From Candidatus Poribacteria bacterium (GTDB taxonomy: Bacteria > Poribacteria > WGA-4E > WGA-3G), in assembly GCA_965205015.1 (NCBI GenBank), contig OZ242029.1, positions 1,216,001 through 1,280,000 on the forward strand: a stretch of DNA of 64,000 bases. Reading direction: 5' to 3'. The notes under the pieces are model-generated. The model had not been told where the DNA came from. It did not search any database and saw only the letters and a program-made list of their open reading frames with translations. This document shows, piece by piece, positions 12,848-30,630 of the stretch. A program made the translations under genes and the position numbers. Position 1 is the stretch's first letter. Each line of letters opens with the position of its first letter.

Positions 12848-12873
12848 CGCGGATCTCCCTCCATCGGATATAT

Positions 12874-13491
12874 CTACTTCTGCTTGGCTTCAATCGTGAC
12901 GATAAGACGGACGTCGTCGCTGACAGCGCCGACACCGTAGGTCATGCCGAAATCGCTCCGCTTAATCGTGAAGACGGTTTCAAACCCGATCATAGATTCA
13001 CCGCGCTCGCCTGTCCCTTTACCGGTAATCGCGACATCCACGGTGATAGATTTCTTAACCCCGAGGAGCTCAAGATCCCCTGTGACTTCCAACACATCTT
13101 CTTTCCCTTCCTTCATATCCACTTGTGTGCTCTGGAAGGTTATCACAGGAAACTGCTTCGCGCTGAAGAAGTCTGGACTTCTGAGGTGCTGATCGCGCTT
13201 GTTGTTAGCAGTATCAATGCTCGCTGCTTTTACTTCAAATTGTACCGTGCTTTTGGACACATCGGTTTCGTCAATCATGAGATTGCCACCGAACTCATTG
13301 AATCTGCCGTAGTTGTAGCTAATACCCTTGTGTTTTGCACGAAAAATTATCATTGAATGCGAGGTATCAATTTCGTATGTAACGGCTGCCTCGGCGAAGG
13401 GTCCATTTCCAACGAAGCCGATGATGAGTAAGGCTAAAACAAGACCAGCAGTATAGGGAATTCGTTGGGTGCGTCCTAAGTAGGTTTTCAT
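12874..13491 (-). CDS. yceI: YceI family lipid/polyisoprenoid-binding periplasmic protein
   Basis: IDTSHS, GRF, SIDT..KRDQHLRSPDFF, IKRSDFG motifs; start moved to the ATG with SD aaggag. Confidence 0.9.
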   Translation of the reverse strand: MKTYLGRTQRIPYTAGLVLALLIIGFVGNGPFAEAAVTYEIDTSHSMIIFRAKHKGISYNYGRFNEFGGNLMIDETDVSKSTVQFEVKAASIDTANNKRDQHLRSPDFFSAKQFPVITFQSTQVDMKEGKEDVLEVTGDLELLGVKKSITVDVAITGKGTGERGESMIGFETVFTIKRSDFGMTYGVGAVSDDVRLIVTIEAKQK

Positions 13492-13514
13492 CGTGAAAAA
13501 TCTCCTTAATCTAT

Positions 13515-13603
13515 AGGACTTACGCAATTTTCATGAAGTGCCTCATATTGCGCCATTGACGAGGTGAGGAAACCTCGCCAGCAGGGCGGACTGCGTAGGT
13601 CCT
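13515..13603. mobile_element. MITE-like element with terminal inverted repeats aggacttacgca / tgcgtaggtcct
   Basis: Inverted ends plus an internal cgagg...cctcg hairpin; lies in the yceI leader. Confidence 0.55.
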
Positions 13604-13664
13604 GATCTATTTGATTTGATAGTTCAATTTTGTAAGTATCTTTTGCCTTGTATTCGGCAAAAGA

Positions 13665-13693
13665 AGTATACCGTATTTTCTGACAGATGTCAA
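13665..13693 (-). promoter_or_regulatory. Sigma70-type promoter for the yceI operon
   Basis: Minus strand TTGACA-17 bp-TATACT. Confidence 0.7.
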
Positions 13694-13719
13694 CATGAAA
13701 TGTTCGGCACAAAATTTTC

Positions 13720-13749
13720 TTGAATTTCATTACAAAATTGTGATATAAT
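13720..13749 (+). promoter_or_regulatory. Sigma70-type extended -10 promoter for the plus-strand cluster starting at 14065
   Basis: TTGAAT-18 bp-TATAAT with TG at the extended -10 position. Confidence 0.65.
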
Positions 13750-13760
13750 TATTAAATTAT

Positions 13761-13984
13761 ACAGAACTTGCGCAGCATCCTGTGCTGGCGAGGTTTATGA
13801 GGATTAACAATTTAATTCGGTAATGCGTGGGCAGGTAATGCGTGGGCAGGCACAAGACCCGGGGAAACACCCAAGCAAAAACCCCCTACAGTCGTTTTTT
13901 GGGATAGAATTACCGAAATATTTTCTTAAACCGCGCCAGCGGCGTGTGGGCCGTAGGTCTTCCATAGAAATTGCGTAAGTCCTA
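13761..13984. mobile_element. Nested composite repeat (element within element)
   Basis: Outer arms match the reverse complement of 4908..4971, but a 131-bp insert (13797..13927) splits the hairpin loop. Confidence 0.75.
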
Positions 13985-14064
13985 TTATCAAAGTTATGTC
14001 AACTGCGACATCTTGGGGGCAACTTACCGAAATCGTGTAATGAGAGGGAGGGTTTTCAACAAAA

Positions 14065-15663
14065 ATGAAAGTATCGCTATCAAAGTTTAAGATTTACTTA
14101 GGCGTGTATCTGTTCTGTTTTGTAGCGTTAAGCCCGCATGTAACGGCAGACCAGCACGCTACAGATTCAAAAATTAGTTTTCATTCCCAGATTGTCCCGC
14201 TCCTCAAACGGAGTTGCCAAGGATGCCATCATCCTGGGGATCCAAATGGCGATCTGATTGTGACAACCTACGCAGCACTCAAACAAGGTGGAATGGCGGG
14301 GGATGCCATTGTCCCTGGAAAACCGGATGAAAGTCTCCTCATTGAACTTATCTCCGGCGATGAACCCGCAATGCCACAAAACATGGAACCCCTCTCCGCT
14401 GAAGAGGTCGAACTGTTCCGACGCTGGATTCTCGAAGGTGCACACGACGACACACCCGCTGAAGTCGACGATATGGGCGACGGAAACTATCCGACCTACA
14501 CAGTGCCTCCCGTGGTCACGGCACTGGCATACTCGCCGGATGGTAGCACCCTCGCGGTGTCGGGATTCCGCGAAATTTTGTTGTATGACACAACGAACTT
14601 TGAACGCAAAGGGCGCTTGGTCGGTAAAGCACATCGCATAGAATCGCTGACGTATACGGCAGATGGAAAGATTTTAGGCATGGCAGGTGGCTCCCCTGCC
14701 CAATTCGGCGAAGTGCAGCTATGGGATACCGCAACGAACACACTCATCAAAGCGATGCGTTCCAGCTATGACACCGTGTACGGACTCTCGTTCTCACCAG
14801 ATGCAAGCCGGGTCGCCTTCGGATGTTCAGACCAGACGGTCCGCGTCCTGTCCGTTGAAGACGAGAAAGAACTGATTAAATTCGACAACCACAGCGACTG
14901 GGTCTTCGGTACGATTTTCTCTACCGATGGTTCCCACTTCGTGAGTTGCGGGCGCGATACTGCCCTCAAATTGGTTGAGGTAGATACAGGCTCTTTCGTT
15001 GACGACATCAATTCCAGCAACAAGGGGTATGGAGAAATTAACACGCTCGCGCGGCACCCGACGAAAGATCAGGTTTTGAGTGCTGGTGAAGATCGAATCC
15101 CGCGGCTCTACAAAATCTTTCGCGAAATACGCAGAGATGTCGGGAATACGGATTTCAATCTCATCCAAGCGTATGAAGCACAGTCGGGTACAATTGAAGG
15201 CGTCGCGTTCTCAGCAGACGGTAGCCGGTTCGCGACTGGCAGCGCAGGCGGTGAAGCCCGTATCTACAACGTGGAAGACGGAAAACGTTTAGCAAGCATG
15301 CAAGGCGATGCAGTGGGTGTTTTCGCAGTTTCGTTCCATCCAGATGGCACGCAGCTCGCTACAGGCGGTTTTGATGGAAAGATTCGGATATTTGATACCG
15401 CTACCGGCAAACTACTGGATGCCTTTATGTCTGTCCCGATTGAACCCGCCGGAAGCGAGGATGTCGCTTTAGTCGTGACAGGCATGACGTGAGGGGCGTG
15501 CGTTGCCAAAGTGCAGGATGCACTTACACAGCACCAAAATGTTATTAGTGTTGAAGTTTCCCTCCCCGATCAAGCCATTATTAAAGTTAGGAAGAACACC
15601 ACCACCGCGGACGCTCTTGCAGACATCGTGAAAGCGACAGGATTTAGTGCGAAGGTTAAATAA
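14065..15663 (+). CDS. Planctomycete-type cytochrome c (PSCyt1) + WD40 propeller + C-terminal HMA domain; probable selenoprotein (TGA 15490..15492 = Sec), 532 aa
   Basis: Signal peptide, CQGCH heme motif, WD40 repeats. Frame continues through TGA as GMT-U-GACVAKVQDAL...GFSAKVK to TAA at 15661..15663. Confidence 0.88.
15509..15525 (+). promoter_or_regulatory. Candidate bacterial SECIS apical hairpin
   Basis: aagtgca-gga-tgcactt perfect 7-bp stem, G-starting loop 23 nt after the TGA. Confidence 0.7.
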
Positions 15664-15689
15664 GGCGCGAAGGATACTGGGGGTTTCCT

Positions 15690-16034
15690 ATGACAATACA
15701 GGAACTACAAGAGATTATGTCTCAGCGGTTTGAAGCACAGGATAAGATGATCGTGCAGCGGTTTGAAGCACAGGATAAGATGATCGCGCAGCGGTTCGAG
15801 GGAATAGATCAGCGGTTTGAGGCGATAGATCAGCGATTTGGGGCATTAGAGAAACGCCAGGACCGCATTGAAACGCGTATGGATCGTATGGAAGGCAAAC
15901 TCGATAAAGTCGTGGAACTTGTCGCTATGTTACACGGGGAACGGGCATTTGCAGGCCGCTTTTGGAAGCATGCGGCGTGGATCACGCCAACCGTTATCGC
16001 CCTTGCTGCGCTCATCAAGAGTTTCTTTCTCTAG
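15690..16034 (+). CDS. Small coiled-coil protein with C-terminal TM helix
   Basis: QRFE.ID repeats; 33-bp-period direct repeat 15723..15786; hydrophobic C-terminus. Confidence 0.75.
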   Translation: MTIQELQEIMSQRFEAQDKMIVQRFEAQDKMIAQRFEGIDQRFEAIDQRFGALEKRQDRIETRMDRMEGKLDKVVELVAMLHGERAFAGRFWKHAAWITPTVIALAALIKSFFL

Positions 16035-16052
16035 ACATATAGAGGCTGACGT

Positions 16053-17504
16053 ATGGCTCTCAAGGCACCCAATATCCTCTGGGTTTGCACGGATCAACAG
16101 CGTTACGACACAATCGGCGCATTAGGGAATCCGTATGTGTCCACACCGAACATCGATAATTTAGTGGCGGAAGGGGTGGCGTTCACGCACGCCTATTGTC
16201 AAAGCCCTATCTGTACCCCGAGCCGAGCGAGCTTTCTCACGGGGATGTATCCAAACGCAACACACGCGATCCGCAACGGAAACGATTTTTTTCCAGATGC
16301 GTATCCGCTTGTAACGCGCACCCTCGCAGATATCGGTTATGATTGCGGGCTGATTGGCAAACTTCACCTTGCGAGTGCATACGGTCGGGTGGAACCCCGC
16401 GTAAACGACGGCTACCGTTATTGGCAATACAGCCATGCGCCACGCGACGACTGGGAACAGGGACACGACTACGCCGATTGGGTCCGCACGCAGGGATACA
16501 TTTTAGGCGAGTTGAACCAGAACCCGGAAGGTGTACCAGCGGAGTTGCATCAGACGACCTGGTGTGCGGAAAAGACGATTGCGTTTATTCGCGAAGACCG
16601 GGAGGATTCCCCGTGGCTCGCGAGTGTTAATATCTACGACCCACATCCGCCGTTCAATCCACCACAGACACACCGAGACCAATATAATCCGGCGGAAATG
16701 CCAGAGCCGATTTTCCGAAACAGTGATCTGGAACAGCAGACCCGGCTACAAGCCGTCGATTTTCAATCCAAAGTCCGTACACCTGATGAACTGGACATTC
16801 GGAGTCCAATCTTACCGCAGACCCCGCGTCAAGAAGCAGAGGCAGTCGGGGCGAGAGATGCCAAAACACTCATAGCTGCCTATTACGCCATGATCCAACT
16901 GATTGACGAGCAGTTCGGTAGGATCCTTGAAGCACTTGACGAAACAGGGCAACGGGAAAACACCGTCATCATCTTCACGAGTGACCATGGAGAGACACTC
17001 GGCGACCATGGACTCATCCAAAAGGGGTGTAGATTCTACGAAGGTTTGGTCAGGGTGCCTCTGATTTTTTCATGGCAGGGACAATTTGCGAGTGGACTCA
17101 AGAGTGACGCACTCGTTGAACTCGTTGACAAAGCCCCGACGCTCTTGGAATTGGCGGGTTTAGCAGTCCCGGAGGAGATGCACGGCAGATCACTTCTGCC
17201 GATCCTTCGAGGTGAAGCGGATCCGAACCATCACCGCGATTTCGTCCGATGTGAGTACTACGACGCTGTGGACCTGCCGGATCACACTTTCGCAACAATG
17301 TATCGAAATGAACGTTACAAATTAGTAGTGTATCACGGGCACGAAGCGGGTGAACTCTACGATTTAATTGAGGATCCGGACGAATTTGAGAATCTCTGGC
17401 ATGTCGGTGCGAAACAAGGGGTCAAATTTGAACTTCTAAAACAGAGTTTTGATGCCTCCATGCTCGCCATGGACAAAGGCTCCCGGCGCGTCGGACCGAT
17501 GTGA
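16053..17504 (+). CDS. Sulfatase (Cys-type, formylglycine-dependent), no signal peptide
   Basis: PNILW..DQQR, CTPSRAS..TG, GKLH, SDHG motifs. Confidence 0.92.
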   Translation: MALKAPNILWVCTDQQRYDTIGALGNPYVSTPNIDNLVAEGVAFTHAYCQSPICTPSRASFLTGMYPNATHAIRNGNDFFPDAYPLVTRTLADIGYDCGLIGKLHLASAYGRVEPRVNDGYRYWQYSHAPRDDWEQGHDYADWVRTQGYILGELNQNPEGVPAELHQTTWCAEKTIAFIREDREDSPWLASVNIYDPHPPFNPPQTHRDQYNPAEMPEPIFRNSDLEQQTRLQAVDFQSKVRTPDELDIRSPILPQTPRQEAEAVGARDAKTLIAAYYAMIQLIDEQFGRILEALDETGQRENTVIIFTSDHGETLGDHGLIQKGCRFYEGLVRVPLIFSWQGQFASGLKSDALVELVDKAPTLLELAGLAVPEEMHGRSLLPILRGEADPNHHRDFVRCEYYDAVDLPDHTFATMYRNERYKLVVYHGHEAGELYDLIEDPDEFENLWHVGAKQGVKFELLKQSFDASMLAMDKGSRRVGPM

Positions 17505-17513
17505 GGAATTGTG

Positions 17514-17606
17514 ATGGAATGGGTTGCAATTTCCGCGTTTGCAGTGTTTATCATTGGACTCGGGATAGTCGGTGGAAAGGCGATACACCACGCCTACAAA
17601 GATTAA
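17514..17606 (+). CDS. Putative 30-aa single-TM microprotein MEWVAISAFAVFIIGLGIVGGKAIHHAYKD
   Basis: Own translation; SD-like gagga at 17503..17507; fills the gap between the sulfatase and the methyltransferase. Confidence 0.55.
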   Translation: MEWVAISAFAVFIIGLGIVGGKAIHHAYKD

Positions 17607-17625
17607 ACTTTGATAAAACGAAATT

Positions 17626-18417
17626 ATGCTTGAACACAACACTATCCATTGCGGCGATACGTTTCATCTACTGAAAGCGGTAGAAGATGCCTCTGTGGAC
17701 CTGATTGTGTGCGATGGACCGTATGGCATAACAGGAAATTCGTGGGACGAGATTTCCTCAATTCAGGAATTTAATCTCACGCTTATCCAAAATTTCGCGC
17801 CGAAACTGAAGGATGGAGGCGCGCTCTATCTGTTCGGGAAACCGGACTGTATCGACTTCATTGACTATCGAGAATACTTAAATCTGCGTTCAAAGATCAT
17901 CTGGTATCAACCGAGTCGGCTCGCACAGGGACGTATCAGTTACACGAACAACTACGACATTATCTGCTACTTTATTAAGGGCAAAAAGCCGCGGTGCTAC
18001 AACTTGGACGCTATCAGAGTTTCGCAACTTGTTGAGTTAGCGCATCGGAGTCGGTGTGAAAATGTGCCATCGGTAACGAACGGCAAATTTGGCAAGACGA
18101 AATACAATCCGAAAGGAAAGAATCCCGGCGATGTCTGGGGCGATATAAAGCAATTAACCTATAAATCCAAGGAATTGGTGAGTCGAAAAGCCCTCAACAC
18201 GATCCAGAAACCGGAGAAGCTCATTGAGCGGATTGTATTGGCGAGTTCATTACCGGGAGATTTGGTTCTGGATCCTTTTGCTGGCGTCGGCACTTGCCCT
18301 GTTGTGTGTAAGCGACATCAACGGGAGTTTATCGGGTTTGAGATTGAACCGAGTTTTGTAAAAGCAGGGAATGAACGCCTTCGTGCGTGCTATAACGACT
18401 CAGCTTTGCCTTTATAG
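17626..18417 (+). CDS. Site-specific DNA methyltransferase (N4-C/N6-A, beta class), orphan
   Basis: N-terminal DGPY (DPPY-like) motif; QKP; C-terminal VLDPFAGVGT SAM motif. Confidence 0.88.
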   Translation: MLEHNTIHCGDTFHLLKAVEDASVDLIVCDGPYGITGNSWDEISSIQEFNLTLIQNFAPKLKDGGALYLFGKPDCIDFIDYREYLNLRSKIIWYQPSRLAQGRISYTNNYDIICYFIKGKKPRCYNLDAIRVSQLVELAHRSRCENVPSVTNGKFGKTKYNPKGKNPGDVWGDIKQLTYKSKELVSRKALNTIQKPEKLIERIVLASSLPGDLVLDPFAGVGTCPVVCKRHQREFIGFEIEPSFVKAGNERLRACYNDSALPL

Positions 18418-18448
18418 GGGCGATATCGGCGAATTCTACGCGAAAGAC

Positions 18449-18477
18449 TTGACAAAAACGTTAATTTATGATACTAT
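18449..18477 (+). promoter_or_regulatory. Sigma70-type promoter
   Basis: TTGACA-17 bp-TACTAT with extended TG. Confidence 0.75.
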
Positions 18478-18592
18478 TTATGGTAAATTAGCGGAAAAAG
18501 GAACCCGATACGAACATTAATGCCACTTATAGAGGATGCTATCAGTCGTAAGCATCTACGCACCACCTTGCGTAAAGATACAAGGAGCACCC

Positions 18593-19450
18593 ATGGAACG
18601 GACTTTCAAATGGCAAGATGTGGCTCACAAGTGTCGCCAAATGGTATTTTGCTTGACATTTCTTCTGCTTTATGGTATAAGTGTTAGCAACGCAGCCGTG
18701 GAAGTCGGATTTGTCTATCTCGGTGAGAAGGGACCCTTCACTGAGCCCGCGCTGAATTTTGCGGAAAAAGCATTCAAAACGCAGCAACTCGCAAAAGCAG
18801 ACTTGAAAAGCAACACATTCAAGGAGTTCGGCGTTATCTGGTGGCATGAAGGCGATACCGATCCAGGTGAATTGTCCAATGCCGAAATCGGGGCGTTCAT
18901 GGACTACGCCGAAAGTGGTGGGGCTGTCCTCTTAACAGGATGGGCAATCCGGCACGCAACCAACTTCGGACTCGAAAAAGCAGTGGCACGTCAGTTCGGC
19001 CCTGTCGCGGAAGACGGCATTGCGGTTGGTATTACCGTGCTAAAAGAGACGATTGAACGCGGTTTAGTGGAAGGTCTCGAAAATATCGACGGAAAAGCAC
19101 CGCAGGTAGACGATAGAATCCAAGTTAATTCCACAGGTTACCCAAAAAGTGGAGACTACTACGACAAGATTTGGACGGACTTTATTACGCTTGCCAACGC
19201 ATGGGGACCGCCTGCAAACGATTGGGGTGATCGGATTGCGGCGTTCGGCTATTGGGAGGCGGGTGCCGGAAAGGTATTCAATATGAACTGGCGACTCCCA
19301 AATTACCACAAAAATAACGAGGATATCGAGCAACTGGAGAAACTCACAGAAAACGTTATCAACTGGTTAGCAAGTGAATCGGAATTCGCGGAGGTTTCCG
19401 CTGGCGGTAAGCTGCCAATCGTGTGGAGCCGATTGAAGAATCAGCAGTAG
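18593..19450 (+). CDS. Secreted protein (possible class I glutamine amidotransferase-like fold) with C-terminal GKLPIVWSRLK tail
   Basis: ATG 18593 with SD aaggag; signal peptide; 'FMDYAESGGAVLLTG' segment. Confidence 0.65.
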   Translation: MERTFKWQDVAHKCRQMVFCLTFLLLYGISVSNAAVEVGFVYLGEKGPFTEPALNFAEKAFKTQQLAKADLKSNTFKEFGVIWWHEGDTDPGELSNAEIGAFMDYAESGGAVLLTGWAIRHATNFGLEKAVARQFGPVAEDGIAVGITVLKETIERGLVEGLENIDGKAPQVDDRIQVNSTGYPKSGDYYDKIWTDFITLANAWGPPANDWGDRIAAFGYWEAGAGKVFNMNWRLPNYHKNNEDIEQLEKLTENVINWLASESEFAEVSAGGKLPIVWSRLKNQQ

Positions 19451-19666
19451 CGCGAGATATTCGCTTGAGCGTCTAACAAACTACACCGGCGATAAAAAAA
19501 GCGAAAATAACGTCACATTTCACGTGTCACTTGACTTCTGCACGCCACAAACGTCACAATCGCACGAAGATAGAGCATATTTGATTAATATGTTCACTGA
19601 TTAACAACGTCTCAGTAATTGTAATATCTACGACGACAACAGCGATAATAACAAATTTTAGTTTGA

Positions 19667-20611
19667 TTGCCTAAAAAGGATACGCTACCATTGGATAATC
19701 TAAAAACTCAGACAGACGCACAATCGAATCTACCTGAAGGTGCTAAAGCACGCCTTGATCAAGGAAACTTAACCGGAGATATAGCATTTTCATTGGATGG
19801 CACACAACTCGCAGTCGCTTGTGACATCGGCGTTTGGATCTATGATGTGGAGAGCGGGCTCGGACTTAATCTCCTCGTTGAGCACAAGGAATACGTCAGA
19901 TGCGTCGCGTATTCTCCTGATGGGCGCGCGATTGCCAGTGGAAGTATAGACAACACGGTAGTTTTATGGGACGCAGTTGGCGGATCTGCGACTGCAACAC
20001 TGGTAGGACATACGGACGCTGTTCGGAGTGTTGCATATTCCGCGGATGGTGCCACCGTCGCAAGTGGAAGTCCTGATGGGACAGTGCGGTTATGGGATGC
20101 CAGCACAGGAGAAGCGAAAAATACACTCACGGGGTACGCAGACTCTATCAGATGTGTTAAATATTCCCCTGATGGGAGTACCCTCGCCGCTGGAACTGGG
20201 GACGACACAGTGGTATTGTGGGACGCTGCCACGGGAAGACACAAAGCAACACTAAAAGGACATACGCATATTGTCGATTCGATCGCCTATTCCTCCGATG
20301 GGGCAGTTCTTGCGAGCGGAAGTATTGACGGCACGGTTCGATTGTGGAATACAGATACAACGGAATTGATAACGACACTTACCGGACACGCCGGTTATGT
20401 CTGGAGCGTCGCTTACGCACCCGATGGCAAAACCGTCGCAAGCGGCGGGAATGACAACACCATTCGTTTATGGGATGTCGCAGGGGCAGCACTTAAAGAA
20501 ACATTCACAGGACACACAGGGAGCGTCAGGAATGTCGCGTATTCTCCTAACGGCAGTGTTCTCGCCAGTGGAAGCGATGACCATACCGTACTCATTTGGG
20601 ATCTCACGTAA
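19667..20611 (+). CDS. WD40 repeat protein
   Basis: About 7 GH...V.SVAYSPDG..ASGS.D.TVRLWD repeats; start uncertain. Confidence 0.9.
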   Translation: MPKKDTLPLDNLKTQTDAQSNLPEGAKARLDQGNLTGDIAFSLDGTQLAVACDIGVWIYDVESGLGLNLLVEHKEYVRCVAYSPDGRAIASGSIDNTVVLWDAVGGSATATLVGHTDAVRSVAYSADGATVASGSPDGTVRLWDASTGEAKNTLTGYADSIRCVKYSPDGSTLAAGTGDDTVVLWDAATGRHKATLKGHTHIVDSIAYSSDGAVLASGSIDGTVRLWNTDTTELITTLTGHAGYVWSVAYAPDGKTVASGGNDNTIRLWDVAGAALKETFTGHTGSVRNVAYSPNGSVLASGSDDHTVLIWDLT

Positions 20612-20625
20612 ATTATTAAGAAGCG

Positions 20626-20743
20626 TCATCAGTTAACAGTTTTCAGAAGTTAAGAGTCGCCAGTTATCAGTTATCAGTGGTCAGTTAAGGAGATGGGCTG
20701 CTAAACCAGAGGTTTTTTTAAGTATTAACTGAAAACCGATAAC
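20626..20743. repeat. Heptamer (cagttat-like) repeat element with inverted distal arm
   Basis: cagttatcagttatcagtggtcagttaa ... ttaactgaaaaccgataac; related tracts at about 26601, 29260, 39100 and 50355. Confidence 0.65.
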
Positions 20744-20805
20744 GAAAAAAAAGGAGGACGGCGTCTCCTCGGTCGATCATAGCCCGGGGGCTCACGCCGA
20801 GTTTT

Positions 20806-23295
20806 TTGATGAAACCCAGGTCTAACTTTGTAACAACATTCCTTGTTGCATTTTCTATCTGTCTCGCGTCGGGAATTGGAGTTCCCGCTTACGCGGCGAG
20901 CGAGATGGAGCAGCCTGCGAGTGCAGAAGTTCCGACGGTGCAAGCGTTAAAAGTTCACCCTGAGTCACTGACATTGGAGCATGCGCGCGACGGTAGACGG
21001 GTGCTTGTGTCAGGAAAAACGAAAAGTGGCACATGGGTAGACGTAACACCTGCTGCTGTACTGACACCCACTACCGCAGGAGTGAAGGTATATGAAGATG
21101 GTTATATCTTCCCAATGGCGGTGGGCACAACAAAAATTACGGTGACAGTCAAAGGTGTCAGCACCGAATTGCCCGTGACCGTTAAAAGTATGGAGGCACC
21201 CCCTGTCAGCTTCGTGAGAGATGTTATGCCGCTCCTGAGCCATGCTGGGTGTAATAACGGCACATGTCACGGTGCAGCAAAGGGCAAAAATGGGTTCAAA
21301 CTCTCACTCCGCGGCTACGACCCCGATTTCGATTATGAACTTTTAATCGAGGACATATCCGGACGGCGGTTTAACCGGGCATTTCCCGAACAGAGTCTGA
21401 TGTTGCTAAAACCGACATCAGAGGTGCCCCACAAAGGCGGACAGGTAATTGTCCCAGGGAATCGGGACTATGAAATCATCCGTCAATGGATAGCAGAAGG
21501 CGCCACTCCTGACGTTCACACCACACAACGCGTCGAAAGGTTGGAGGTCATACCAGATTCGGCTGAACTCGCAATGCCGGGTATGCAGCAACAACTTATA
21601 GTGATCGCACACTATCCCGATGGCACAACCCGGGATGTCACCCGTGAAGCGAAGTTCACAAGTAGCGTCAATGAGGTGGCAAAGGTGACGGACGACGGCG
21701 TGGTAACCGCAGAACGCCGCGGGGAAACGGGGATCCTCACTCGATACGAAGGGGCCTATAGCACAAACGGCATCATCGTTATGGGCGACAGGAGCGGTTA
21801 CAAGTGGGTCAAAACCCCTCAATACAACTACATTGACACGCACGTCCACAATAAACTGAAACGGATGAAAATCCTGCCTTCTGAACTCTGCACAGATGAA
21901 GAGTTTGTACGGCGAATCTATTTCGATCTGACAGGTCTCCCGCCGACGCCGGCGCAGGTGAGGCGCTTCTTGACCGATACGACCGCCTCTAAAGCCAAAC
22001 GCGAGAAACTCATCGATGCCCTCGCCGAGACCTCAGAGTTTGTTGACCACTGGACGCATAAATGGGGCGATCTGTTGCAGTCTAACCGTAAATTCCTCGG
22101 TGAGCGTGGGATATGGCTCTTCCAACAATGGATCCACCAAGCCATTTCCGAGAATCGCCCGTATGACAAGTTTGTGCGAGATCTGATTACCGCAACCGGT
22201 AGCACCTACACGAATCCCGCAGCGAACTATTTCCGTGTTTCGCGTGAATACACGGCTGCGGTGGAAAACACAACCCAACTTTTCTTGGGGGTTCGGTTCT
22301 CCTGCAACAAATGCCATGACCATCCGTTTGAAAAATGGACGCAAAACCAGTACTATGAATTCGGTGCGTTCTTCGCGGATGTCAAAGTCAAACCGGGGCA
22401 GCTCCCCGGCGATGAGGTTGTTTACGCCAATTATACCCCAGAGCCTGTGAAACACCCCCGGACGTTAGCCGTGGTTGAACCCTCAGTACCGTTCGGAGAA
22501 ATTTCAGAAGAAACCGACGACAAACGTGAAATGCTCGCAGAGTGGCTCACCTCTAAAGAGAATCCAATGTTTGCTCGGGCAGGTGTGAACCGCATCTGGA
22601 GTTACTTCATGGGACGTGGGATCATCGAACCTGTAGACGATATCCGAACAAGCAATCCACCCACTAACCCTGAATTGCTTGACGCGTTGACAAAGGACTT
22701 CGTGGACAGCGGATTTGACATGAAACATATCATGAAGACAATCACACGTTCCCGAACCTACCAACAGAGCATCACAACGAATCAGTGGAACAAGGCGGAT
22801 ACGATTAACTTTTCGCACGCAGTTGCCAGACGCTTGACGGCGGAACAGTTGTTAGATGCGATTGGGATCGCGACAGGCAGCCGGCCCCGGTTTGAAGAGA
22901 TGCCGAAAAACTTCCGTGCAGTGCAGTTGCCGGACAGCAAAGTTAAAGATGATGGATTCTTGAAGTTGTTTGGCAGACCTGAGCGCGAAACTTCGTGCGA
23001 ATGTGAACGTACCACGGAGGTCAGCCTCGCACACGCAATGAATCTTATTAATGGACCGACGGTTGCAGAGTCACTCATCGATCCAGAAGGACGTATTGCA
23101 CAACTCATTAAAACGAATCATGATGACCGAGTTCTCGTTGAGGAACTCTATCTCGCGACGCTTTCTCGGTTACCGGAGAAGAACGAATACGCAGTAGCGA
23201 TCAAACACCTTGCGAATGCTGAATCCAAGGAAGAAGGCGCGCAAGACTTGCTGTGGGCACTCATTAACAGTCCCGCCTTCTTATTCAATCGCTAA
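20806..23295 (+). CDS. DUF1549 (PSCyt2) / DUF1553 (PSD1) protein with Ig-like domains
   Basis: Signal peptide; GCNNGTCHG, FVRRIYFDLTGLPPT, CNKCHDHP, NRIWSYFMGRGI, CECER, WALINSPAFLFN motifs. Confidence 0.9.
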   Translation: MMKPRSNFVTTFLVAFSICLASGIGVPAYAASEMEQPASAEVPTVQALKVHPESLTLEHARDGRRVLVSGKTKSGTWVDVTPAAVLTPTTAGVKVYEDGYIFPMAVGTTKITVTVKGVSTELPVTVKSMEAPPVSFVRDVMPLLSHAGCNNGTCHGAAKGKNGFKLSLRGYDPDFDYELLIEDISGRRFNRAFPEQSLMLLKPTSEVPHKGGQVIVPGNRDYEIIRQWIAEGATPDVHTTQRVERLEVIPDSAELAMPGMQQQLIVIAHYPDGTTRDVTREAKFTSSVNEVAKVTDDGVVTAERRGETGILTRYEGAYSTNGIIVMGDRSGYKWVKTPQYNYIDTHVHNKLKRMKILPSELCTDEEFVRRIYFDLTGLPPTPAQVRRFLTDTTASKAKREKLIDALAETSEFVDHWTHKWGDLLQSNRKFLGERGIWLFQQWIHQAISENRPYDKFVRDLITATGSTYTNPAANYFRVSREYTAAVENTTQLFLGVRFSCNKCHDHPFEKWTQNQYYEFGAFFADVKVKPGQLPGDEVVYANYTPEPVKHPRTLAVVEPSVPFGEISEETDDKREMLAEWLTSKENPMFARAGVNRIWSYFMGRGIIEPVDDIRTSNPPTNPELLDALTKDFVDSGFDMKHIMKTITRSRTYQQSITTNQWNKADTINFSHAVARRLTAEQLLDAIGIATGSRPRFEEMPKNFRAVQLPDSKVKDDGFLKLFGRPERETSCECERTTEVSLAHAMNLINGPTVAESLIDPEGRIAQLIKTNHDDRVLVEELYLATLSRLPEKNEYAVAIKHLANAESKEEGAQDLLWALINSPAFLFNR

Positions 23296-23332
23296 TAGTT
23301 TTCAGTTAACCAACAGATGGAGGAAACAATAG

Positions 23333-24778
23333 ATGTTATCGTTACCACAACTCCCCGGACGTTTATGTGACGGGTTCTCACGTCGTGAATTTCTACGTGT
23401 CGGTGGTGCGGCGATGCTCGGCATCAGTTTGCCACAAGTATTGTCACTCCAAGCCAACGCGAATACAACAGTTGATCCCGCCAAGCCGCTCAACGGATGG
23501 GGAAAAGCCAACTCGGTCATCCTTCTTTTCTTACAAGGCGGTCCGAGCCACCTTGACATCTGGGACCCGAAACCGGAAGCGCCGTCGAACATTCGCGGTG
23601 AATTTAATCCGATCCCGACCAATGTGCCGGGAATCCAGTTGTCTGAGACGATGCCGCGTTTGGCACAACAGATGGACAAAGCGTGCCTTATCCGTTCGGT
23701 CAGTTACACACCGGCGGGACTTTTCAACCACACCGCTGCGATGTACCAAATGGTAACGGGTGAAACGCCAGACAAGGTCGCGCCCTCGGGACAGCTCGAT
23801 CCGCCGTCCCCTGCCGACCATCCGAATGCCGCATCGCATATCGCAAACTACCGTCCACCCGATGAACCGATGCTCGCGGCAGTGCAACTCCCGCGCCCGA
23901 TGCAAGAGAGTAATATCATCGGTAAAGGTGGAAACGCTGGTTTCCTTGGCAGAGCATACGATCCGTACTTCCTGTTCCAAGATCCGAATCAGGAGATTAA
24001 CCTCGACGATCTGAGTTTACGTCCAGAGGTACCGCCGGTGCGTCTGAAACGTCGGAAAAACCTCCTTGAGACGATTAACAAAGGGATGCCCGAAATTGAC
24101 AAGGTCGCAGATTCCTACGCTTTGAACGAGTATTACGAGAAGGCGTATAACCTCATCCTGTCGCAGCGGGCACGCAACGCATTCGATTTGTCGCAAGAAC
24201 CGGATGAGATGCGAGATAAGTACGGTAGACACACGTTTGGACAGAGCGCCCTCCTCGCTCGCCGTTTGGTGGAAGCAGGCACCCGTTTCGTGCAGGTGAA
24301 CTGGCCCTCCGTCGCTAACGGCGATCCGAATACTACGGCATGGGATACGCACGCAACCAACTTTGGTCCGTTGAAGAACCTTCACTGCCCGAAGTTAGAC
24401 AGTGCCGTCTCCTCACTGCTGGAAGACTTGGATCAACGCGGTATGTTGGACGATACCCTCGTCTTAGCGATCGGTGAATTCGGACGCTCGCCGCGGATGG
24501 GTATCAGCACCTCCGGTAATAGCAACGCGCCTGATGGACGCGATCACTGGCCCTATTGTTACACAGGTCTGATTGCAGGTGCTGGTGTTAAAGGTGGACA
24601 GGTCTACGGGAAGTCCGATGCAACAGGCTCAACGCCGCTTGAGAACCCGGTGCATCCGAGAGACATCCTCGCCACGGTCTATCATACACTCGGTATCGAT
24701 CCGCACACCATCGTGTACAACCACTTGGATCAGCCACGCGAGTTAGTGAAAGGCGAACCGATTGCCGGGATATTCTAA
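23333..24778 (+). CDS. DUF1501 family protein (Tat-exported)
   Basis: SRREFL Tat motif; GGPSHLDIWDPKP, ARRLVEAG, WDTH, GEFGRSP, GRDHW motifs. Confidence 0.92.
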   Translation: MLSLPQLPGRLCDGFSRREFLRVGGAAMLGISLPQVLSLQANANTTVDPAKPLNGWGKANSVILLFLQGGPSHLDIWDPKPEAPSNIRGEFNPIPTNVPGIQLSETMPRLAQQMDKACLIRSVSYTPAGLFNHTAAMYQMVTGETPDKVAPSGQLDPPSPADHPNAASHIANYRPPDEPMLAAVQLPRPMQESNIIGKGGNAGFLGRAYDPYFLFQDPNQEINLDDLSLRPEVPPVRLKRRKNLLETINKGMPEIDKVADSYALNEYYEKAYNLILSQRARNAFDLSQEPDEMRDKYGRHTFGQSALLARRLVEAGTRFVQVNWPSVANGDPNTTAWDTHATNFGPLKNLHCPKLDSAVSSLLEDLDQRGMLDDTLVLAIGEFGRSPRMGISTSGNSNAPDGRDHWPYCYTGLIAGAGVKGGQVYGKSDATGSTPLENPVHPRDILATVYHTLGIDPHTIVYNHLDQPRELVKGEPIAGIF

Positions 24779-24790
24779 ATGTTGGCAGAA

Positions 24791-24888
24791 GTCTGGACTG
24801 GGATTTTTGGGATTTTTGTGAGTTACCATGATGATGAGACCTCCGATACTCAGGGTAATCCTTTAATCCGTTAAATCACAGTTCAGAC
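24791..24888. repeat. MITE-like repeat with inverted ends gtctggactgggatt / aatcacagttcagac
   Basis: Shares ttaccatgatgatga and aatc arms with 42113..42190. Confidence 0.65.
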
Positions 24889-24955
24889 TTTTTCACGACC
24901 GTCGCTATCTCATAGATGCTCTGGAAACACAGATTTCTCAGAAGATTCCAACGTT

Positions 24956-26623
24956 ATGCGTTCAAACATCAACAGTAAAATCGCGCTTAATATTGATGGT
25001 GATGCCAAAGTCTCCATCAAAGGTTTCATTGCCCCGATTGAACACACCCTCAGTAACCACCACATAGAGTTCGAGTGGGATGGGTTGGTGAATCTCCGAG
25101 TCACCGCGCCAGAAAAGGAGTATTCGGCATCCGTCTTCCGCGCGTTTCTGCCAGACGCAGCGGTGTCTGTTGGAAGTCCTTGGCAGATTGAAAAAGCGGG
25201 TGTCCTTGAACTGCTGCGGCAACTTCACCCAAATCCAGATTTGGATATGCGCTATACGGAAGGCGAAAATGGGACCCCTGGGTTGTGGGCGTGCTTGCGT
25301 GCTTACACCGATGAATTCGCGGAGATTCTGTTTCGCATTCATGCAGAATTCAGGTTAGGTGATGGTTGGTTCACGCCTTCACAATTTACCGGACATCTCG
25401 TTATCAACCGTCGGGAAGAAAGCGTCTCGTTTTTTCAGATGCGCGTTCCAGAAGGACCCGTGAATTTTGAGGTCGCCTGGCAGGACGAAAGGAATAATTG
25501 GGATGACTCCAACTGGATCATGGATACCGGTTTTTGCTCGCAAATGGAACTCCGTGCTGGGACCGAAGCCGTTCTACGAGACATCACAACCCGTTTGGAA
25601 AGCGCAATGGGCGGTTCTACTACCATTACGCAGAGGGCAGCTGAGCGTGTGTTAAACTGCCAGTTTTACAAATCGGAACAAATCGATTGGGTCTCGATGG
25701 AGACGGCGCTGGAATTAGCACAAACACAACAGAAACCGATTCACGCTATTTCCATAGATGGACCCTTGGCAGACGAGAGTTGCTGAGGAAGTGGCAAAGG
25801 CCTGAGGGCAGGTGCTCTCTCCGACGAACAAAACATCAAATTCTTGAATGAACATTTCATCAATACATGGGTATCCAATGTCGCCTTCGGTCGCACACCG
25901 AATAAACGCGCCTATCTTGCCAAGAGAATCCAGCACGGTTTCAAGGGGGTTGACACAACACACCCATTGGCGCAAGCTATCATAAACGGGTGGCAGTTAC
26001 ACTTGCCAATAGATTCTCTGGTTATCTCGTCTGAACTTGAAGTCATGGGTAGGCAAGATGCCAATCGACTCCACGAAGATAGCAGGGATCGGGGACTCTC
26101 CGAAGCGGAGGGGTACCGCCTATTCTTATCGGAAGCCTTAGCAGGCAAACGCCCTGGGTTGGGTAGAATCGTCCTAACCCCTGAGTGTCCCTCAGTCGAG
26201 ATAATGGACACTTTTCAGACGCCGATGATCCCCCATCAAGACTACACCGTCGTAGAGATTGATACCACGGCGTTTGAAGACGGCGGCACGCTTACACTGG
26301 ATATCGGCGTCGGGAGAGGTAAGGCGGAAGGGGTTTTTTACCTATTTGATGACAACAAAGACCTCCCAACAGAAAAAGCACCTGAAGGCGTATCTACCTC
26401 TGTCTGGGAGCGTCAAGAAGGCGAGGTTTATCTGGCAGCTCTCGATGCCCTCGCCACAGAAGCGGTTTACCCTGAAAAAACCGAAAGAATCACCTACCCT
26501 TTTGACGAAGGTGAGTTGTTTCGCTTGTGTGTTACCGGGAGTCCGTACAGTGCGAAAGGGAGTCACAACGCTTTCAACCTCAAAATCTCCGTAGAAGAGA
26601 AACTGATAACTGATAACCACTAA
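24956..26623 (+). CDS. Selenoprotein N (SELENON)-like protein, probable Sec at TGA 25784..25786, 555 aa
   Basis: Track ORFs 24956..25786 and 25844..26623 are in one frame joined by GPLADESC-U-GSGKGLRAGALS...FLNEHFINTW. Upstream FRIHAEF, FTPSQFTGHL and QMEL match SELENON motifs as I recall them. Confidence 0.88.
25800..25813 (+). promoter_or_regulatory. Candidate bacterial SECIS apical hairpin
   Basis: gcctg-aggg-caggt stem-loop, loop 18 nt after the TGA; possible lower stem gga..ggca / tgc..tcc. Confidence 0.6.
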
Positions 26624-26637
26624 TGAGGTAATTAAAA

Positions 26638-29259
26638 ATGCCGAATACGCCATTTCGGAAATATAAAAGAAAAGAGTGGAAGAGTGGAAGAGTAGAAGAG
26701 TGGAAGAGGGGTGGGTGTCCATCCCTCCATCCTTCCATCCTTCCATCCAGTCTTCTCGTCATAGCGATCTTTCTCCTAACGATTGGTTTCGCATACGCCC
26801 AGGTGCAACCCACCCTGACGGCTGTCTTCCCACAAGGCGGTCAGCAGGGACGCAGCGTAGACGTCACACTCACAGGCACAAATCTCGGCACAGCAACAGC
26901 GGTGTGGTTCAGTGGGAAGGGTATCACCGCGGAAATTAAAGAAAAAACGGGGCAAGCTGCTGTCGTTTTCAACGGTGCTGGTGTTTCCGGAAGTATTCCG
27001 AGCGACACGCAGTTGGTCGCATCGCTAACGATTGCCAGCGACGCACCGTTAGGTATCCAACAGATACGCGCCGTTACCCCGTATGGTGTCTCCAATGCTG
27101 GCAGCTTCGTTGTTGGAAATCTACGAGAAATCATTGAAGAAGAGACAGAGGCATCGGCGTCGGAAACCTCGTCCACAATGGAAACCGACTGGCTGGCGCT
27201 GCCGGTTACCGTGAACGGCACAATCGCTTCAATTGACGATGAAGACAGTTTTACCTTTCAAGTGAAAAAGGATACGCGGCTTATCTGTGAAGTGGCAGCA
27301 CAGCAAATAGGTTCGCTGTTGGATTCCTACCTCGTTCTCCGCGATACCAATGGGACTGAGGTCGCCAACAGTGGTCTCGGTAACGCCTTTGACTCCGTTT
27401 TGGACTACACAGCACCTGAAACTGGGAAATACACGCTCCACATTCGCGATATTCGTTACAAAGGCGGAGATGGGTACGCCTATCGCTTGAGTATCGGTGA
27501 ATTACCCTATCTTGAGACGATCTTTCCCCTCGGTGGGCAACGCGGTACCGAGAATACAGTTACCGTCACTGGCGCGAACCTGGAGACGGTAGAATCCATA
27601 CAGGTTTCAATCGGTGCTGAAACACCGGCAGGCGAACAATCTTTGAGAGTCCAGACGCCTTCCGGGTTGGCAACCAATCCACATCCGTTCACTATCGGAA
27701 ATTGGACGGAAATGGTGGAGACCGAGCCGAATAACACAACTGGGAATGCGAATGCCGTAACGACACCGATAACGCTCAACGGAAAAATCGACACATCCGG
27801 CGATGTCGACTATTTTTCGTTTGAGATTAAAGAACCGCAACTCCTCGTTTTTGAGGTAGAGGCACTTAACCTGTCATCAAAACTTGATGCATTACTCACG
27901 CTCTACGGTCCAGGAAAACCGATGGAAGCCTCCGAAGAAATGGGAAATAAAGGGCAAGGTTGGGAAACCTCGCCAGCGGAACAGGTGCTGATGGTAAACG
28001 ACGATGCCACCAATGCCGATGCCCGTATTGACTGGAATTTTGAAGCAGCTGGAAAGTACTCTATCGCCATTCGGGATCTAAACAATCAAGGCGGTGAAAC
28101 TTATCCGTACCGATTAAACATCCGTCCGTTGGAACCCGACTGCCAACTCAGTGTAGTTGCCCTTGACATTCGGAATCGTCCGACCGCCATGGATAACCCG
28201 CGCGTTAGCAGAGGCAGCAGCGTTACATTGCAGATTAATGTTACGCGTCTCGACCAATTTGCGGGTCCAATTCGCTTACTTTGTCCAGACCTTCCGAGAA
28301 CATTCGATGTGAGTCCGACGATTGTCGGAGCAAACCAAAACCGGGCGATGCTTACGATAACGGCACCATCGGATGCACCACTCGGACTCATGCCGGTCTC
28401 CATCGTTGGGGTTTGTGCCGTCGGGGGTCGCCAGATAGAGCGCACTGCCACTCCGTCTCCGATCCTGCTGACCGTAATGGATGCGCCGGAATTCACACTG
28501 ACGCTCGCAGAGATCGGTTTAAGCACTGTGCACAACAAAACCGTTGACCTCCACGTGACAGCAACACGTCGCGATGACTTCGTCGGTCCGATCGCATTAT
28601 CGGTATCCGGACTTCCAAATCGTGTTTCAGCACTTCCTGACCCTGTTTCTAAAAAACCTGTCACGATTTCGGAAGGCGAAACAGAAGCGATGATTTTGGT
28701 TAAAGCTGGGACTTTTGAACGGAGAGAGGAATTTTCCGTCTTGCCGATACCCGGTACAAATTATATCTCGGTTACCGGAACGTCGACTGTCAATGGCGAG
28801 ACGGTGAAACAATCGACTCCTGCCATCCCTTTGACGATCGTCGAGGCCCCCTTTATTGTAACGGTTGAACCCCTGCGCTTTAGCATTGTCTTCCCTGCAA
28901 CGGCACCCCCAGGGTCTGAAGTCGAGACAGTCGCACTTACGGAAACCAATCCAGCGACGGACACCGAAACAGCAAAAGCCGAAGATCCGCGAACAAAGGA
29001 AGCGATATTGACGTTAACGATCGTCCGGCAAGGCGGCTTCACAGATGAAATCACGTTGACGCCGATCGATGTCCCAGAAGGCTTTACCACAGAGGCGGTT
29101 ACCATCCCAGCAAACGAGACGGAGGCAAAAGTCCCACTAAAAGCACTCAGCTCTTTAACGCCGGAGACATACGAGTTTAAATTCCGAGGCGCTGTGACGA
29201 TTAACGATACACCCTTTGAACAGGATAGTCCTATCGTCAAGGTAAAGATTATCCATTAA
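26638..29259 (+). CDS. Planctomycete-type PPC (pre-peptidase C-terminal) domain / Ig-like secreted protein
   Basis: VFPQGGQQG, LPVTVNG.I..DED, ETEPNN, D.DYF.F, LD..L.L motifs; no catalytic protease motif seen. Confidence 0.85.
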   Translation: MPNTPFRKYKRKEWKSGRVEEWKRGGCPSLHPSILPSSLLVIAIFLLTIGFAYAQVQPTLTAVFPQGGQQGRSVDVTLTGTNLGTATAVWFSGKGITAEIKEKTGQAAVVFNGAGVSGSIPSDTQLVASLTIASDAPLGIQQIRAVTPYGVSNAGSFVVGNLREIIEEETEASASETSSTMETDWLALPVTVNGTIASIDDEDSFTFQVKKDTRLICEVAAQQIGSLLDSYLVLRDTNGTEVANSGLGNAFDSVLDYTAPETGKYTLHIRDIRYKGGDGYAYRLSIGELPYLETIFPLGGQRGTENTVTVTGANLETVESIQVSIGAETPAGEQSLRVQTPSGLATNPHPFTIGNWTEMVETEPNNTTGNANAVTTPITLNGKIDTSGDVDYFSFEIKEPQLLVFEVEALNLSSKLDALLTLYGPGKPMEASEEMGNKGQGWETSPAEQVLMVNDDATNADARIDWNFEAAGKYSIAIRDLNNQGGETYPYRLNIRPLEPDCQLSVVALDIRNRPTAMDNPRVSRGSSVTLQINVTRLDQFAGPIRLLCPDLPRTFDVSPTIVGANQNRAMLTITAPSDAPLGLMPVSIVGVCAVGGRQIERTATPSPILLTVMDAPEFTLTLAEIGLSTVHNKTVDLHVTATRRDDFVGPIALSVSGLPNRVSALPDPVSKKPVTISEGETEAMILVKAGTFERREEFSVLPIPGTNYISVTGTSTVNGETVKQSTPAIPLTIVEAPFIVTVEPLRFSIVFPATAPPGSEVETVALTETNPATDTETAKAEDPRTKEAILTLTIVRQGGFTDEITLTPIDVPEGFTTEAVTIPANETEAKVPLKALSSLTPETYEFKFRGAVTINDTPFEQDSPIVKVKIIH

Positions 29260-29291
29260 TTGGTTATCAGTTATCGGTTATCGGTCATCAG

Positions 29292-29374
29292 GGGGCAGGC
29301 ACGAGACCTGCCCCTACATTCGGGCAGGCATAAGACCCTACATTCGGGCAGGCACAAGACCTGCCCCTACATTC
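29292..29374. repeat. Three tandem GTAG-type REP-like units (gggcaggcacaagacctgcccctacattc)
   Basis: Units at 29292, 29322 (internally deleted) and 29346. Confidence 0.85.
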
Positions 29375-29382
29375 ATATCTGA

Positions 29383-30552
<1,170 letters not shown>

Positions 30553-30630
30553 CCAGGCAGCGCTCCGCATCTTTTGAGACATAGGCAAGATGCATTAGAC
30601 ATAAAACAGCGGAAGAAGCTTGTGCGAACG

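Follow-up and report, generated by a model that had tools for sequence, protein, structure and literature searches.

A probable Poribacteria copy of the four-gene DUF1501 module with a selenocysteine HMA tail and a selenoprotein N-like gene as a facultative insertion

The stretch of DNA analysed here, referred to as the window, comprises 64,000 nucleotides of contig OZ242029.1 (positions 1,216,001 to 1,280,000 of the forward strand) from the Candidatus Poribacteria assembly GCA_965205015.1. Its segment 14065-29259 encodes the four proteins of the DUF1501 module, one of which very probably ends in an HMA domain that contains selenocysteine (Sec, U), together with a protein resembling selenoprotein N (SelN). 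A first-pass annotation of the sequence had placed the four module genes on the plus strand with starts at 14065, 20806, 23333 and 26638, and open reading frames (ORFs) and Pfam matches agree with all four positions. It had also placed a SelN-like selenoprotein gene between the DUF1501 and PPC genes, ending 14 bp before the PPC start, and this was borne out when two ORFs were joined through an in-frame TGA. The principal features, including two hairpins that resemble selenocysteine insertion sequence (SECIS) elements, are the following, in window coordinates:

14065..15663, plus strand: module gene 1, PSCyt1 (CxxCH at residue 51), WD40 propeller and C-terminal HMA domain, a predicted exported selenoprotein of 532 aa
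15490..15492, plus strand: in-frame TGA read as Sec U476, in the motif GMT-U-GAC
15509..15525, plus strand: SECIS-like hairpin AAGUGCA-GGA-UGCACUU, 17 nt downstream of the UGA
20806..23295, plus strand: module gene 2, Big-like, PSCyt2 (DUF1549) and PSD1 (DUF1553) domains, exported, CxxCH at residue 500
23333..24778, plus strand: module gene 3, DUF1501 (PF07394, 355 bits), twin-arginine (Tat) signal SRREFL at residue 16
24956..26623, plus strand: lineage-specific insertion, a SelN-like selenoprotein gene for a 555-aa product without a signal peptide
25784..25786, plus strand: in-frame TGA read as Sec U277, in the motif S-C-U-G
25804..25819, plus strand: SECIS-like hairpin GAGGGC-AGGU-GCUCUC, 17 nt downstream of the UGA
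26638..29259, plus strand: module gene 4, PPC/TIG protein of 873 aa, exported

Pfam searches identified PSCyt1 (PF07635, 41.5 bits against a cut-off of 22) and WD40 (PF00400, 108 bits) in the gene 1 protein, PSCyt2/DUF1549 (162 bits), PSD1/DUF1553 (166 bits) and a Big-like domain in the gene 2 protein, and PPC (PF04151, 38.4 bits against a cut-off of 25.9) together with TIG in the gene 4 protein. No PSCyt1 domain was detected by Pfam in the gene 2 protein at E 0.01; a C-x4-CH sequence (CNNGTCH) occurs at its residue 149 (window 21250-21270), where the published architecture places PSCyt1. Export signals and CxxCH-type motifs had both been attributed to the module proteins in the first-pass annotation. 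Motifs for export are found on all four, that of the PPC protein being a hydrophobic N-terminal segment only, recognised by motif inspection rather than by a signal-peptide predictor. CxxCH, by contrast, was found in two of the four, as C51QGCH in gene 1 and C500NKCH in gene 2; motif inspection located none in the DUF1501 protein, which bears the Tat motif instead, or in the PPC protein.

The same four architectures, apart from the PSCyt1 domain of the gene 2 protein, were described by Kamneva et al. (2012, PMC3542564) for the 'most complex' DUF1501 clusters, which consist of four genes and occur in Planctomycetes, Verrucomicrobia and Lentisphaerae, of the Planctomycetes-Verrucomicrobia-Chlamydiae (PVC) bacteria. 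In these clusters a DUF1501 gene, whose product in some cases has a Tat signal, is grouped with genes for a signal-peptide-bearing PPC protein and for two PSCyt1 proteins, one of PSCyt1/WD40 and one of PSCyt1/Big_2/PSCyt2/PSD1 architecture. The excerpts available from that paper leave the function of the cluster unexplained and offer electron transport at a membrane as a guess, in keeping with the first-pass description of a recurrent, functionally unexplained cluster in Planctomycetes and relatives. The function of PSCyt genes is likewise stated as unexplained in the available part of PMC5615132, and a full-text literature search found DUF1501, DUF1553, DUF1549 and PSCyt to be covered by few papers. 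The window copy resembles the published cluster in that DUF1501 has a Tat signal and the PSCyt proteins have both CxxCH motifs and signal peptides. It differs in three respects: its PSCyt1-WD40 protein continues into a C-terminal Sec-HMA domain, which the available excerpts of PMC3542564 do not mention; its Big/PSCyt2/PSD1 protein has the C-x4-CH sequence at residue 149 and no PSCyt1 domain detected by Pfam; and the module is interrupted by six other genes in all, five between genes 1 and 2 and the SelN-like gene.

The HMA tail becomes visible when the TGA of gene 1 is read as U, since the frame then extends 57 codons past it to 15663. The last 81 residues of the resulting protein match HMA (PF00403, 34.2 bits against a cut-off of 24.8) and contain GMT-U-GAC, a motif of the GMxCxxC type, in agreement with the Sec-HMA tail that the first-pass annotation had ascribed to one module protein. 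The CopZ, MerP and UxxU_metal_bind models match the tail weakly and all fall under their cut-offs, with NCBIfam scores of 33-36 bits against family cut-offs of 85-95 (33.6 against 95 for UxxU_metal_bind).

Each ortholog search, whether for the PPC protein, the HMA tail or the N-terminal half of SelN, sampled 120 Poribacteria genomes. With an 87-aa tail query, at least 82 of the 120 genomes were found, among the matches listed, to carry the tail at the end of an open frame of 511-590 aa with exactly one TGA, and at least five (G056, G020, G089, G105 and G090), again among the matches listed, carry it without a stop, as Cys forms; 33 further matches lie outside those listed. A sporadic tail had been expected to count against the idea of a selenium-dependent system, and the tail is not sporadic. 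Among 36 tails inspected directly, the codon in question is TGA in 31 and TGT or TGC in five. The tail motif was not matched in one (L130) of 20 newly fetched stretches.

Downstream of the codon, the 31 Sec forms (29 distinct sequences) share the hairpin AAGUGCA-GGR-UGCACUU, located 17 nt past the UGA, with 7/7 pairs formed in all but one of the 31 sequences. The synonymous third positions within its stem, which belong to Val, Ala and Leu codons (G24, A33 and U36), are invariant or nearly so in the Sec forms. In the five Cys forms, 4-6 of the seven pairs are left and the loop GG has become GA, and the encoded peptide is nearly identical to that of the Sec forms (VQNAL instead of VQDAL). These five probably constitute one clade and hence one event.

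Public annotation does not display the tail. The 120 best public homologs of the gene 1 protein have lengths of 439-494 aa and match no more than 89% of it; public gene calls stop at or near the UGA and thereby hide the tail. Among 30 representative PSCyt1-WD40 proteins of less than 800 aa drawn from all public data, phmmer found no match to the tail, and because Sec forms among these representatives would be cut at the UGA, this is a weak hint that the HMA fusion may be a Poribacteria invention. Two further searches addressed tails outside Poribacteria: a word-index search with residues 452-532, aimed at Cys forms, scored none of 119 candidates and is uninformative, having also missed the known Cys forms of Poribacteria, and the results of a representative search were dominated by giant WD40 proteins. 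Judged from the sequences, Poribacteria have fused an HMA domain to the C-terminus of the propeller subunit, with the first ligand Cys encoded by UGA.

Selenocysteine in HMA-type proteins has been documented before. The tables in PMC2398784 and PMC9312934 include a Sec HMA-type MerP, a cation-transporting ATPase E1-E2 (UxxC) and a putative mercuric reductase (UxxU). As in these proteins and in the NCBIfam family NF041115 (UxxU_metal_bind), Sec in the window domain takes the place of the first ligand of a GMxCxxC-type motif. Unlike them, the window domain forms the end of a propeller protein that has a haem motif and belongs to the DUF1501 module, and its scores lie far below the cut-offs of the named NCBIfam families, hence it is not a member of them. 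Literature searches found no paper joining a Sec-HMA domain to the DUF1501 module, and the terms 'Planctomycet' and 'Poribacteria' never occur in a 2026 review of the prokaryotic selenoproteome (PMC13188914). The useful new element is the hidden selenocysteine HMA tail; both the module and Sec HMA-type proteins were already known.

Small stand-alone Sec-HMA genes also occur in many Poribacteria genomes, as frames of 99-195 aa with one TGA, often in tandem pairs. Three examples (L086:6712-7107; L087:7026-7412, minus strand; L088:7035-7427, minus strand) have a lipoprotein-like N-terminus, and their neighbours, named from N-terminal sequences, are GIY-YIG, PhyH-like, glycosyltransferase, PRPP synthetase and phosphoglycerate mutase-like genes.

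The architecture of the module was traced through related genomes. The best homologs and all 67 SelN-related loci derive from metagenome-assembled genomes of Candidatus Poribacteria or from sponge-type bins. The PPC protein was matched in 104 of the 120 Poribacteria genomes, and 14 loci from more distant tiers were fetched for module architecture. Five of these clusters (L077, L078, L079, L082 and L083) have PSCyt1-WD40, DUF1549/1553, DUF1501 and PPC genes side by side, with no intervening gene, and the five genes that separate module genes 1 and 2 in the window are all missing from them. The sulfatase and the 304-aa gene are the sole insertions in the module at L072-L074, only the last three module genes are present at L075, L076 and L080, and gene 2 adjoins DUF1501 in every related locus examined. 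The four-gene adjacency of the published cluster is thus seen as a compact block in distant Poribacteria and is interrupted in the window. Because distant Poribacteria loci carry the four genes compactly, the module is ancestrally compact, and the window version is a compact module later split by insertions. The intervening genes, identified with Pfam and together occupying 15690..20611 on the plus strand, are the following:

15690-16034, plus strand: coiled-coil ORF
16053-17504, plus strand: sulfatase
17626-18417, plus strand: N6/N4 DNA methylase
18536-19450, plus strand: 304-aa gene with no assigned family
19667-20611, plus strand: WD40 protein

The sulfatase within the split module, which with the methylase spans window 16053-18417, is of the Cys type, with a CTPSR motif and no obvious signal peptide, and these two genes are retained in the same order in close relatives. 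The DUF1501 protein is 78-99% identical across 16 Poribacteria loci, an unusual degree of conservation compared with the neighbouring PPC protein, whose identity falls to 36-41% in the same genomes. A paralogous cluster in genome G004 (L081:3562-9301, minus strand) combines a Tat-DUF1501 gene with genes for WD40-like (391-aa) and PPC-like (1035-aa) proteins; a DUF1549/1553 gene is missing from it, and Pup-ligase-like genes lie alongside.

The second selenoprotein of the span is formed by ORFs 24956-25786 and 25844-26623, which fuse through the TGA at 25784-25786 into a single 555-aa protein whose frame ends at 26623, 14 nt upstream of the PPC start. Its similarity to fish selenoprotein N reached E 2.9e-16 in a database search and, in pairwise BLASTP, 99.8 bits (E 2e-26) at 26% identity, and the blocks FRAFLP, ACLRA..DIVFRIHAEF and WFTPSQFTG are shared with fish SelN. 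Its Sec follows Cys in S-C-U-G, a likeness to animal SELENON/SEPN1, which presumably shares this motif; the segment is missing from the fish models compared. Differences from animal SELENON are also apparent: the bacterial protein has neither the EF-hand nor the transmembrane N-terminus and starts at about fish residue 150, it has an additional C-terminal beta-sandwich of about 150 aa, and its family has expanded to at least a dozen copies per genome. Bacteria are not mentioned in a SelN review (PMC12839072), and in the BSepDB paper the string 'selenoprotein n' was matched solely as 'selenoprotein name'.

The SelN-like protein has no Pfam match, and a sequence search of the PDB with it gave no match. 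Its AlphaFold model (pLDDT 86) displays, over residues of about 260-395, a strand, the C-U pair and alternating helices and strands, followed by the C-terminal beta-sandwich; in the order of these modelled secondary-structure elements, residues of about 260-395 fit a thioredoxin-like domain. Foldseek with this model returned weak beta-sandwich matches only (best E 5.5e-5, TMq 0.16). A signal peptide is absent from the window copy and from its eight orthologs, and because of this absence the protein is probably cytoplasmic, unlike the four exported module proteins. The loss of a signal peptide was considered as a special property of DUF1501-linked SelN and dropped, as 134 of 158 family copies also have none by a crude hydrophobic-run test, making this the norm of the family. 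The protein may represent a cytoplasmic thiol/selenol oxidoreductase of a large Poribacteria family.

TGA stands at the Sec position in 171 of 171 copies of this family (67 loci and the window). In public data, the two halves are called as separate proteins; full-length versions have G or W at the Sec position, which are taken to be gene calls under another genetic code, and half-length ones end ...DE[AS]C. Across 150 sequences, the hairpin downstream of the UGA has 93.7% of its cells paired, with 13 cells changed on both sides; none of 500 shuffles reached the observed value, and slid controls gave 45-84%.

The linkage of the SelN-like gene to the module is patchy. An ortholog, 77-85% identical over the N-terminal half, occurs in 17 of the 120 genomes, directly upstream of the PPC ortholog in each. 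All eight orthologous loci retain the entire gene order of the window, but since unrelated genes (the DNA methylase and tgt) are kept in order as well, order at this distance is weak evidence for a functional tie. A further 20 genomes of the same close clade were inspected, and in all 20 PPC comes immediately after DUF1501 (96-99% identical), across a gap of about 140-570 nt. Altogether, 33 related loci examined carry the module without the SelN gene, genomes with 99% identical DUF1501 included; the gene is missing at L072-L080 and L082-L084, and a decayed remnant is left at L085, one of the 33. Other genes occupy the DUF1501-PPC spot at L074 and L075. Elsewhere, 59 of the 67 SelN loci hold paralogs, most of them arrayed in tandem, and neither DUF1501 nor PPC lies in their vicinity. 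A complex prediction that paired both halves of SelN with residues 40-481 of DUF1501 scored 0.02, a value that says nothing about binding in either direction. The SelN-like gene, patchy in its occurrence, is a later insertion and not a core part of the module, for which it is probably no more than a dispensable accessory. Lack of linkage in related genomes had been named in the first-pass annotation as a finding that would count against the proposal, and for SelN this is what is observed.

As a separate observation, the DUF1501-PPC gap behaves as an insertion spot, holding the SelN remnant at L085:14263-14803 and a basic, transposase-like ORF of 266 aa at L084:4512-5312 (minus strand).

The span is probably a Poribacteria copy of the PVC four-gene DUF1501 module in which a Sec-HMA domain has been gained on the propeller subunit and the SelN-like gene is a facultative insertion. 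Several observations weigh against this reading or its corollaries. The compact cluster L077 has no HMA tail, and no metal-resistance-like neighbour accompanies the stand-alone Sec-HMA lipoprotein genes at the three loci read. The SelN ortholog, where present, always lies at this one spot (17/17). Furthermore, genome G004 has a second SelN-like subtype, with the motif C-U-A-N and about 33% identity to the window SelN, immediately upstream of PSCyt and DUF1501 genes:

L068:7720-13908, minus strand, G004: trio of C-U-A-N SelN-like, 965-aa PSCyt-DUF1549-DUF1553 and Tat-DUF1501 genes

This trio recurs in nine of 12 further genomes that carry the subtype (L110, L113-L115 and L117-L121; 10/13 in total with L068), spanning both major PPC clades, and the downstream PSCyt/DUF1501 genes are absent at the other three loci (L111, L112 and L116). 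In genome G001, a gene at L069:8654-10954 (minus strand) is a fusion of an ECF-sigma-like N-terminus and a SelN-like domain, the latter containing an in-frame TGA. A DUF1501-like gene (12308-13447) and a DUF1800-like gene (13639-15114), both named from their N-terminal sequences, lie 2.5 kb away. Finally, the 6.66 Mb genome G004 has seven SelN loci and eight DUF1501 loci, two pairs of which lie within 5 kb of each other against 0.095 expected under a naive uniform model, the genomes being related and not independent. Because two such pairs were observed against 0.095 expected, some functional tie between SelN-like proteins and DUF1501 is possible. At one of the trio loci, L118, the PSCyt and DUF1501 genes look frameshifted.

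With the probable four-gene module as the starting point, a mechanism can be outlined. The four exported proteins would act jointly, either in the periplasm or at the cell surface, where the propeller, Ig-like and PPC/TIG domains could hold a macromolecular substrate. DUF1501, which we take to belong to the alkaline-phosphatase/sulfatase superfamily, would be the catalytic subunit, and the CxxCH motifs would carry haem and pass electrons. The Sec-x-x-Cys HMA arm may, as a tentative assignment, bind a soft metal, for instance Cu(I) or Hg(II), close to the haem domain. Alternatively, the arm could be a redox relay rather than a metal site, with U476-x-x-C479 cycling as a selenenyl-sulfide and exchanging electrons with the PSCyt1 haem. 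This would suit its fusion to a haem-motif protein and the frequency of UxxC as a redox selenoprotein motif in the PMC9312934 and PMC2398784 tables; however, the domain scores as HMA and as CopZ/MerP-like rather than as a thioredoxin fold, and the Sec HMA-type proteins in those tables (MerP, cation-transporting ATPase and mercuric reductase) are metal handlers, which leaves the relay rather unlikely.

It is equally doubtful, although several arrangements suggest it, that SelN-like selenoproteins are recurrently recruited accessories of DUF1501/PSCyt modules, for example as a cytoplasmic redox helper acting on DUF1501 before Tat export. Three arrangements, those of the window, L068 and L069, involve different SelN subtypes and DUF1501 paralogs, and the L068 type spans both major PPC clades. 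The L068-type subtype, like that of the window, has no signal peptide, and the Tat signal on DUF1501 implies folding in the cytoplasm before export. Against such recruitment stand the 59 of 67 SelN loci that lie in arrays away from DUF1501, the frequent loss of the window-type copy, the absence of signal peptides as a family norm by the crude test, and the naive basis of the chance estimate among related genomes.

The broadest proposal combines these elements: the Sec-HMA arm would mark the DUF1501/PSCyt module as a metal-dependent envelope redox machine, and DUF1501 would have recruited SelN-like proteins, on two or more independent occasions, as recurrent but facultative partners. As a whole, this combination is unlikely. 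If it were true, the PVC module and the poorly understood selenoprotein N family could be tested within one biochemical context.

Few unexplained gene families of Planctomycetes, Verrucomicrobia and related bacteria are as large as the DUF1501/PSCyt clusters, and a conserved Sec metal-binding domain that is fused to one subunit and hidden by UGA is a concrete lead. The finding also corrects the annotation of the propeller subunit, whose 120 best public homologs end at or near the UGA.

The first-pass annotation had gone further, uniting the four module proteins and SelN, as an active member, in a single envelope redox system dependent on selenium and linked to haem and metal, while allowing that SelN might be a passenger. 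The position of SelN 14 nt before PPC, its location between DUF1501 and PPC in all 17 orthologs, the order kept in 8/8 orthologous loci and the second SelN-like/PSCyt/DUF1501 trio kept in 10/13 genomes would accord with it. Nevertheless, the module occurs without SelN at 33 loci, including one with a decayed remnant and some with 99% identical DUF1501, the window SelN and its eight orthologs are without signal peptides in contrast to the exported module proteins, and close relatives also keep the unrelated methylase and tgt in order, so that a working role for SelN in one such system is improbable. One integral selenoprotein subunit, the protein with the HMA tail, stands from this proposal, and SelN is retained only as a facultative neighbour; because SelN is absent from related modules and has no signal peptide, two selenoproteins in one system is too strong a claim.

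Reading both window TGAs as selenocysteine codons is very probably correct on the combined sequence features. A conserved in-frame TGA followed by a conserved downstream frame is present for the HMA tail and for SelN, as is a hairpin with G in its apical loop soon after the UGA; covariation in these hairpins is modest, as would follow from the location of their stems within conserved coding sequence. Cys homologs at the Sec position are present for the HMA tail (five genomes) and were not found among the 171 SelN family copies. The genomes of close relatives encode SelA in 5/5 cases and tRNA-Sec above the gathering score in 5/5. An Rfam search over 13500-31000 matched no family. The contrary view, in which the TGAs are true stops and the tail and second SelN half are pseudogene remnants or separate genes, corresponds to the public gene calls, which end gene 1 homologs at 439-494 aa and separate the SelN halves, but it is most improbable in light of frames that stay open and conserved past the TGA (31 tails and 171 SelN copies), Cys in place of TGA in five genomes, conserved hairpins after both TGAs, and SelA and tRNA-Sec in relatives.

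Transcription of the span was also considered. A promoter and terminator scan was not informative, with 12 promoter-like sites where 15.7 were expected and 22 terminator-like sites where 16.8 were expected. The metatranscriptome data consist of assembled contigs of RNA libraries, with shares of 0.05-0.16 and mostly 90-95% alike, whose depth cannot rank genes; joints and loose ends of RNA contigs at 24775-24779 probably stem from relatives. One contig of the X1 RNA library covers 25330-25819 and spans the SelN UGA.

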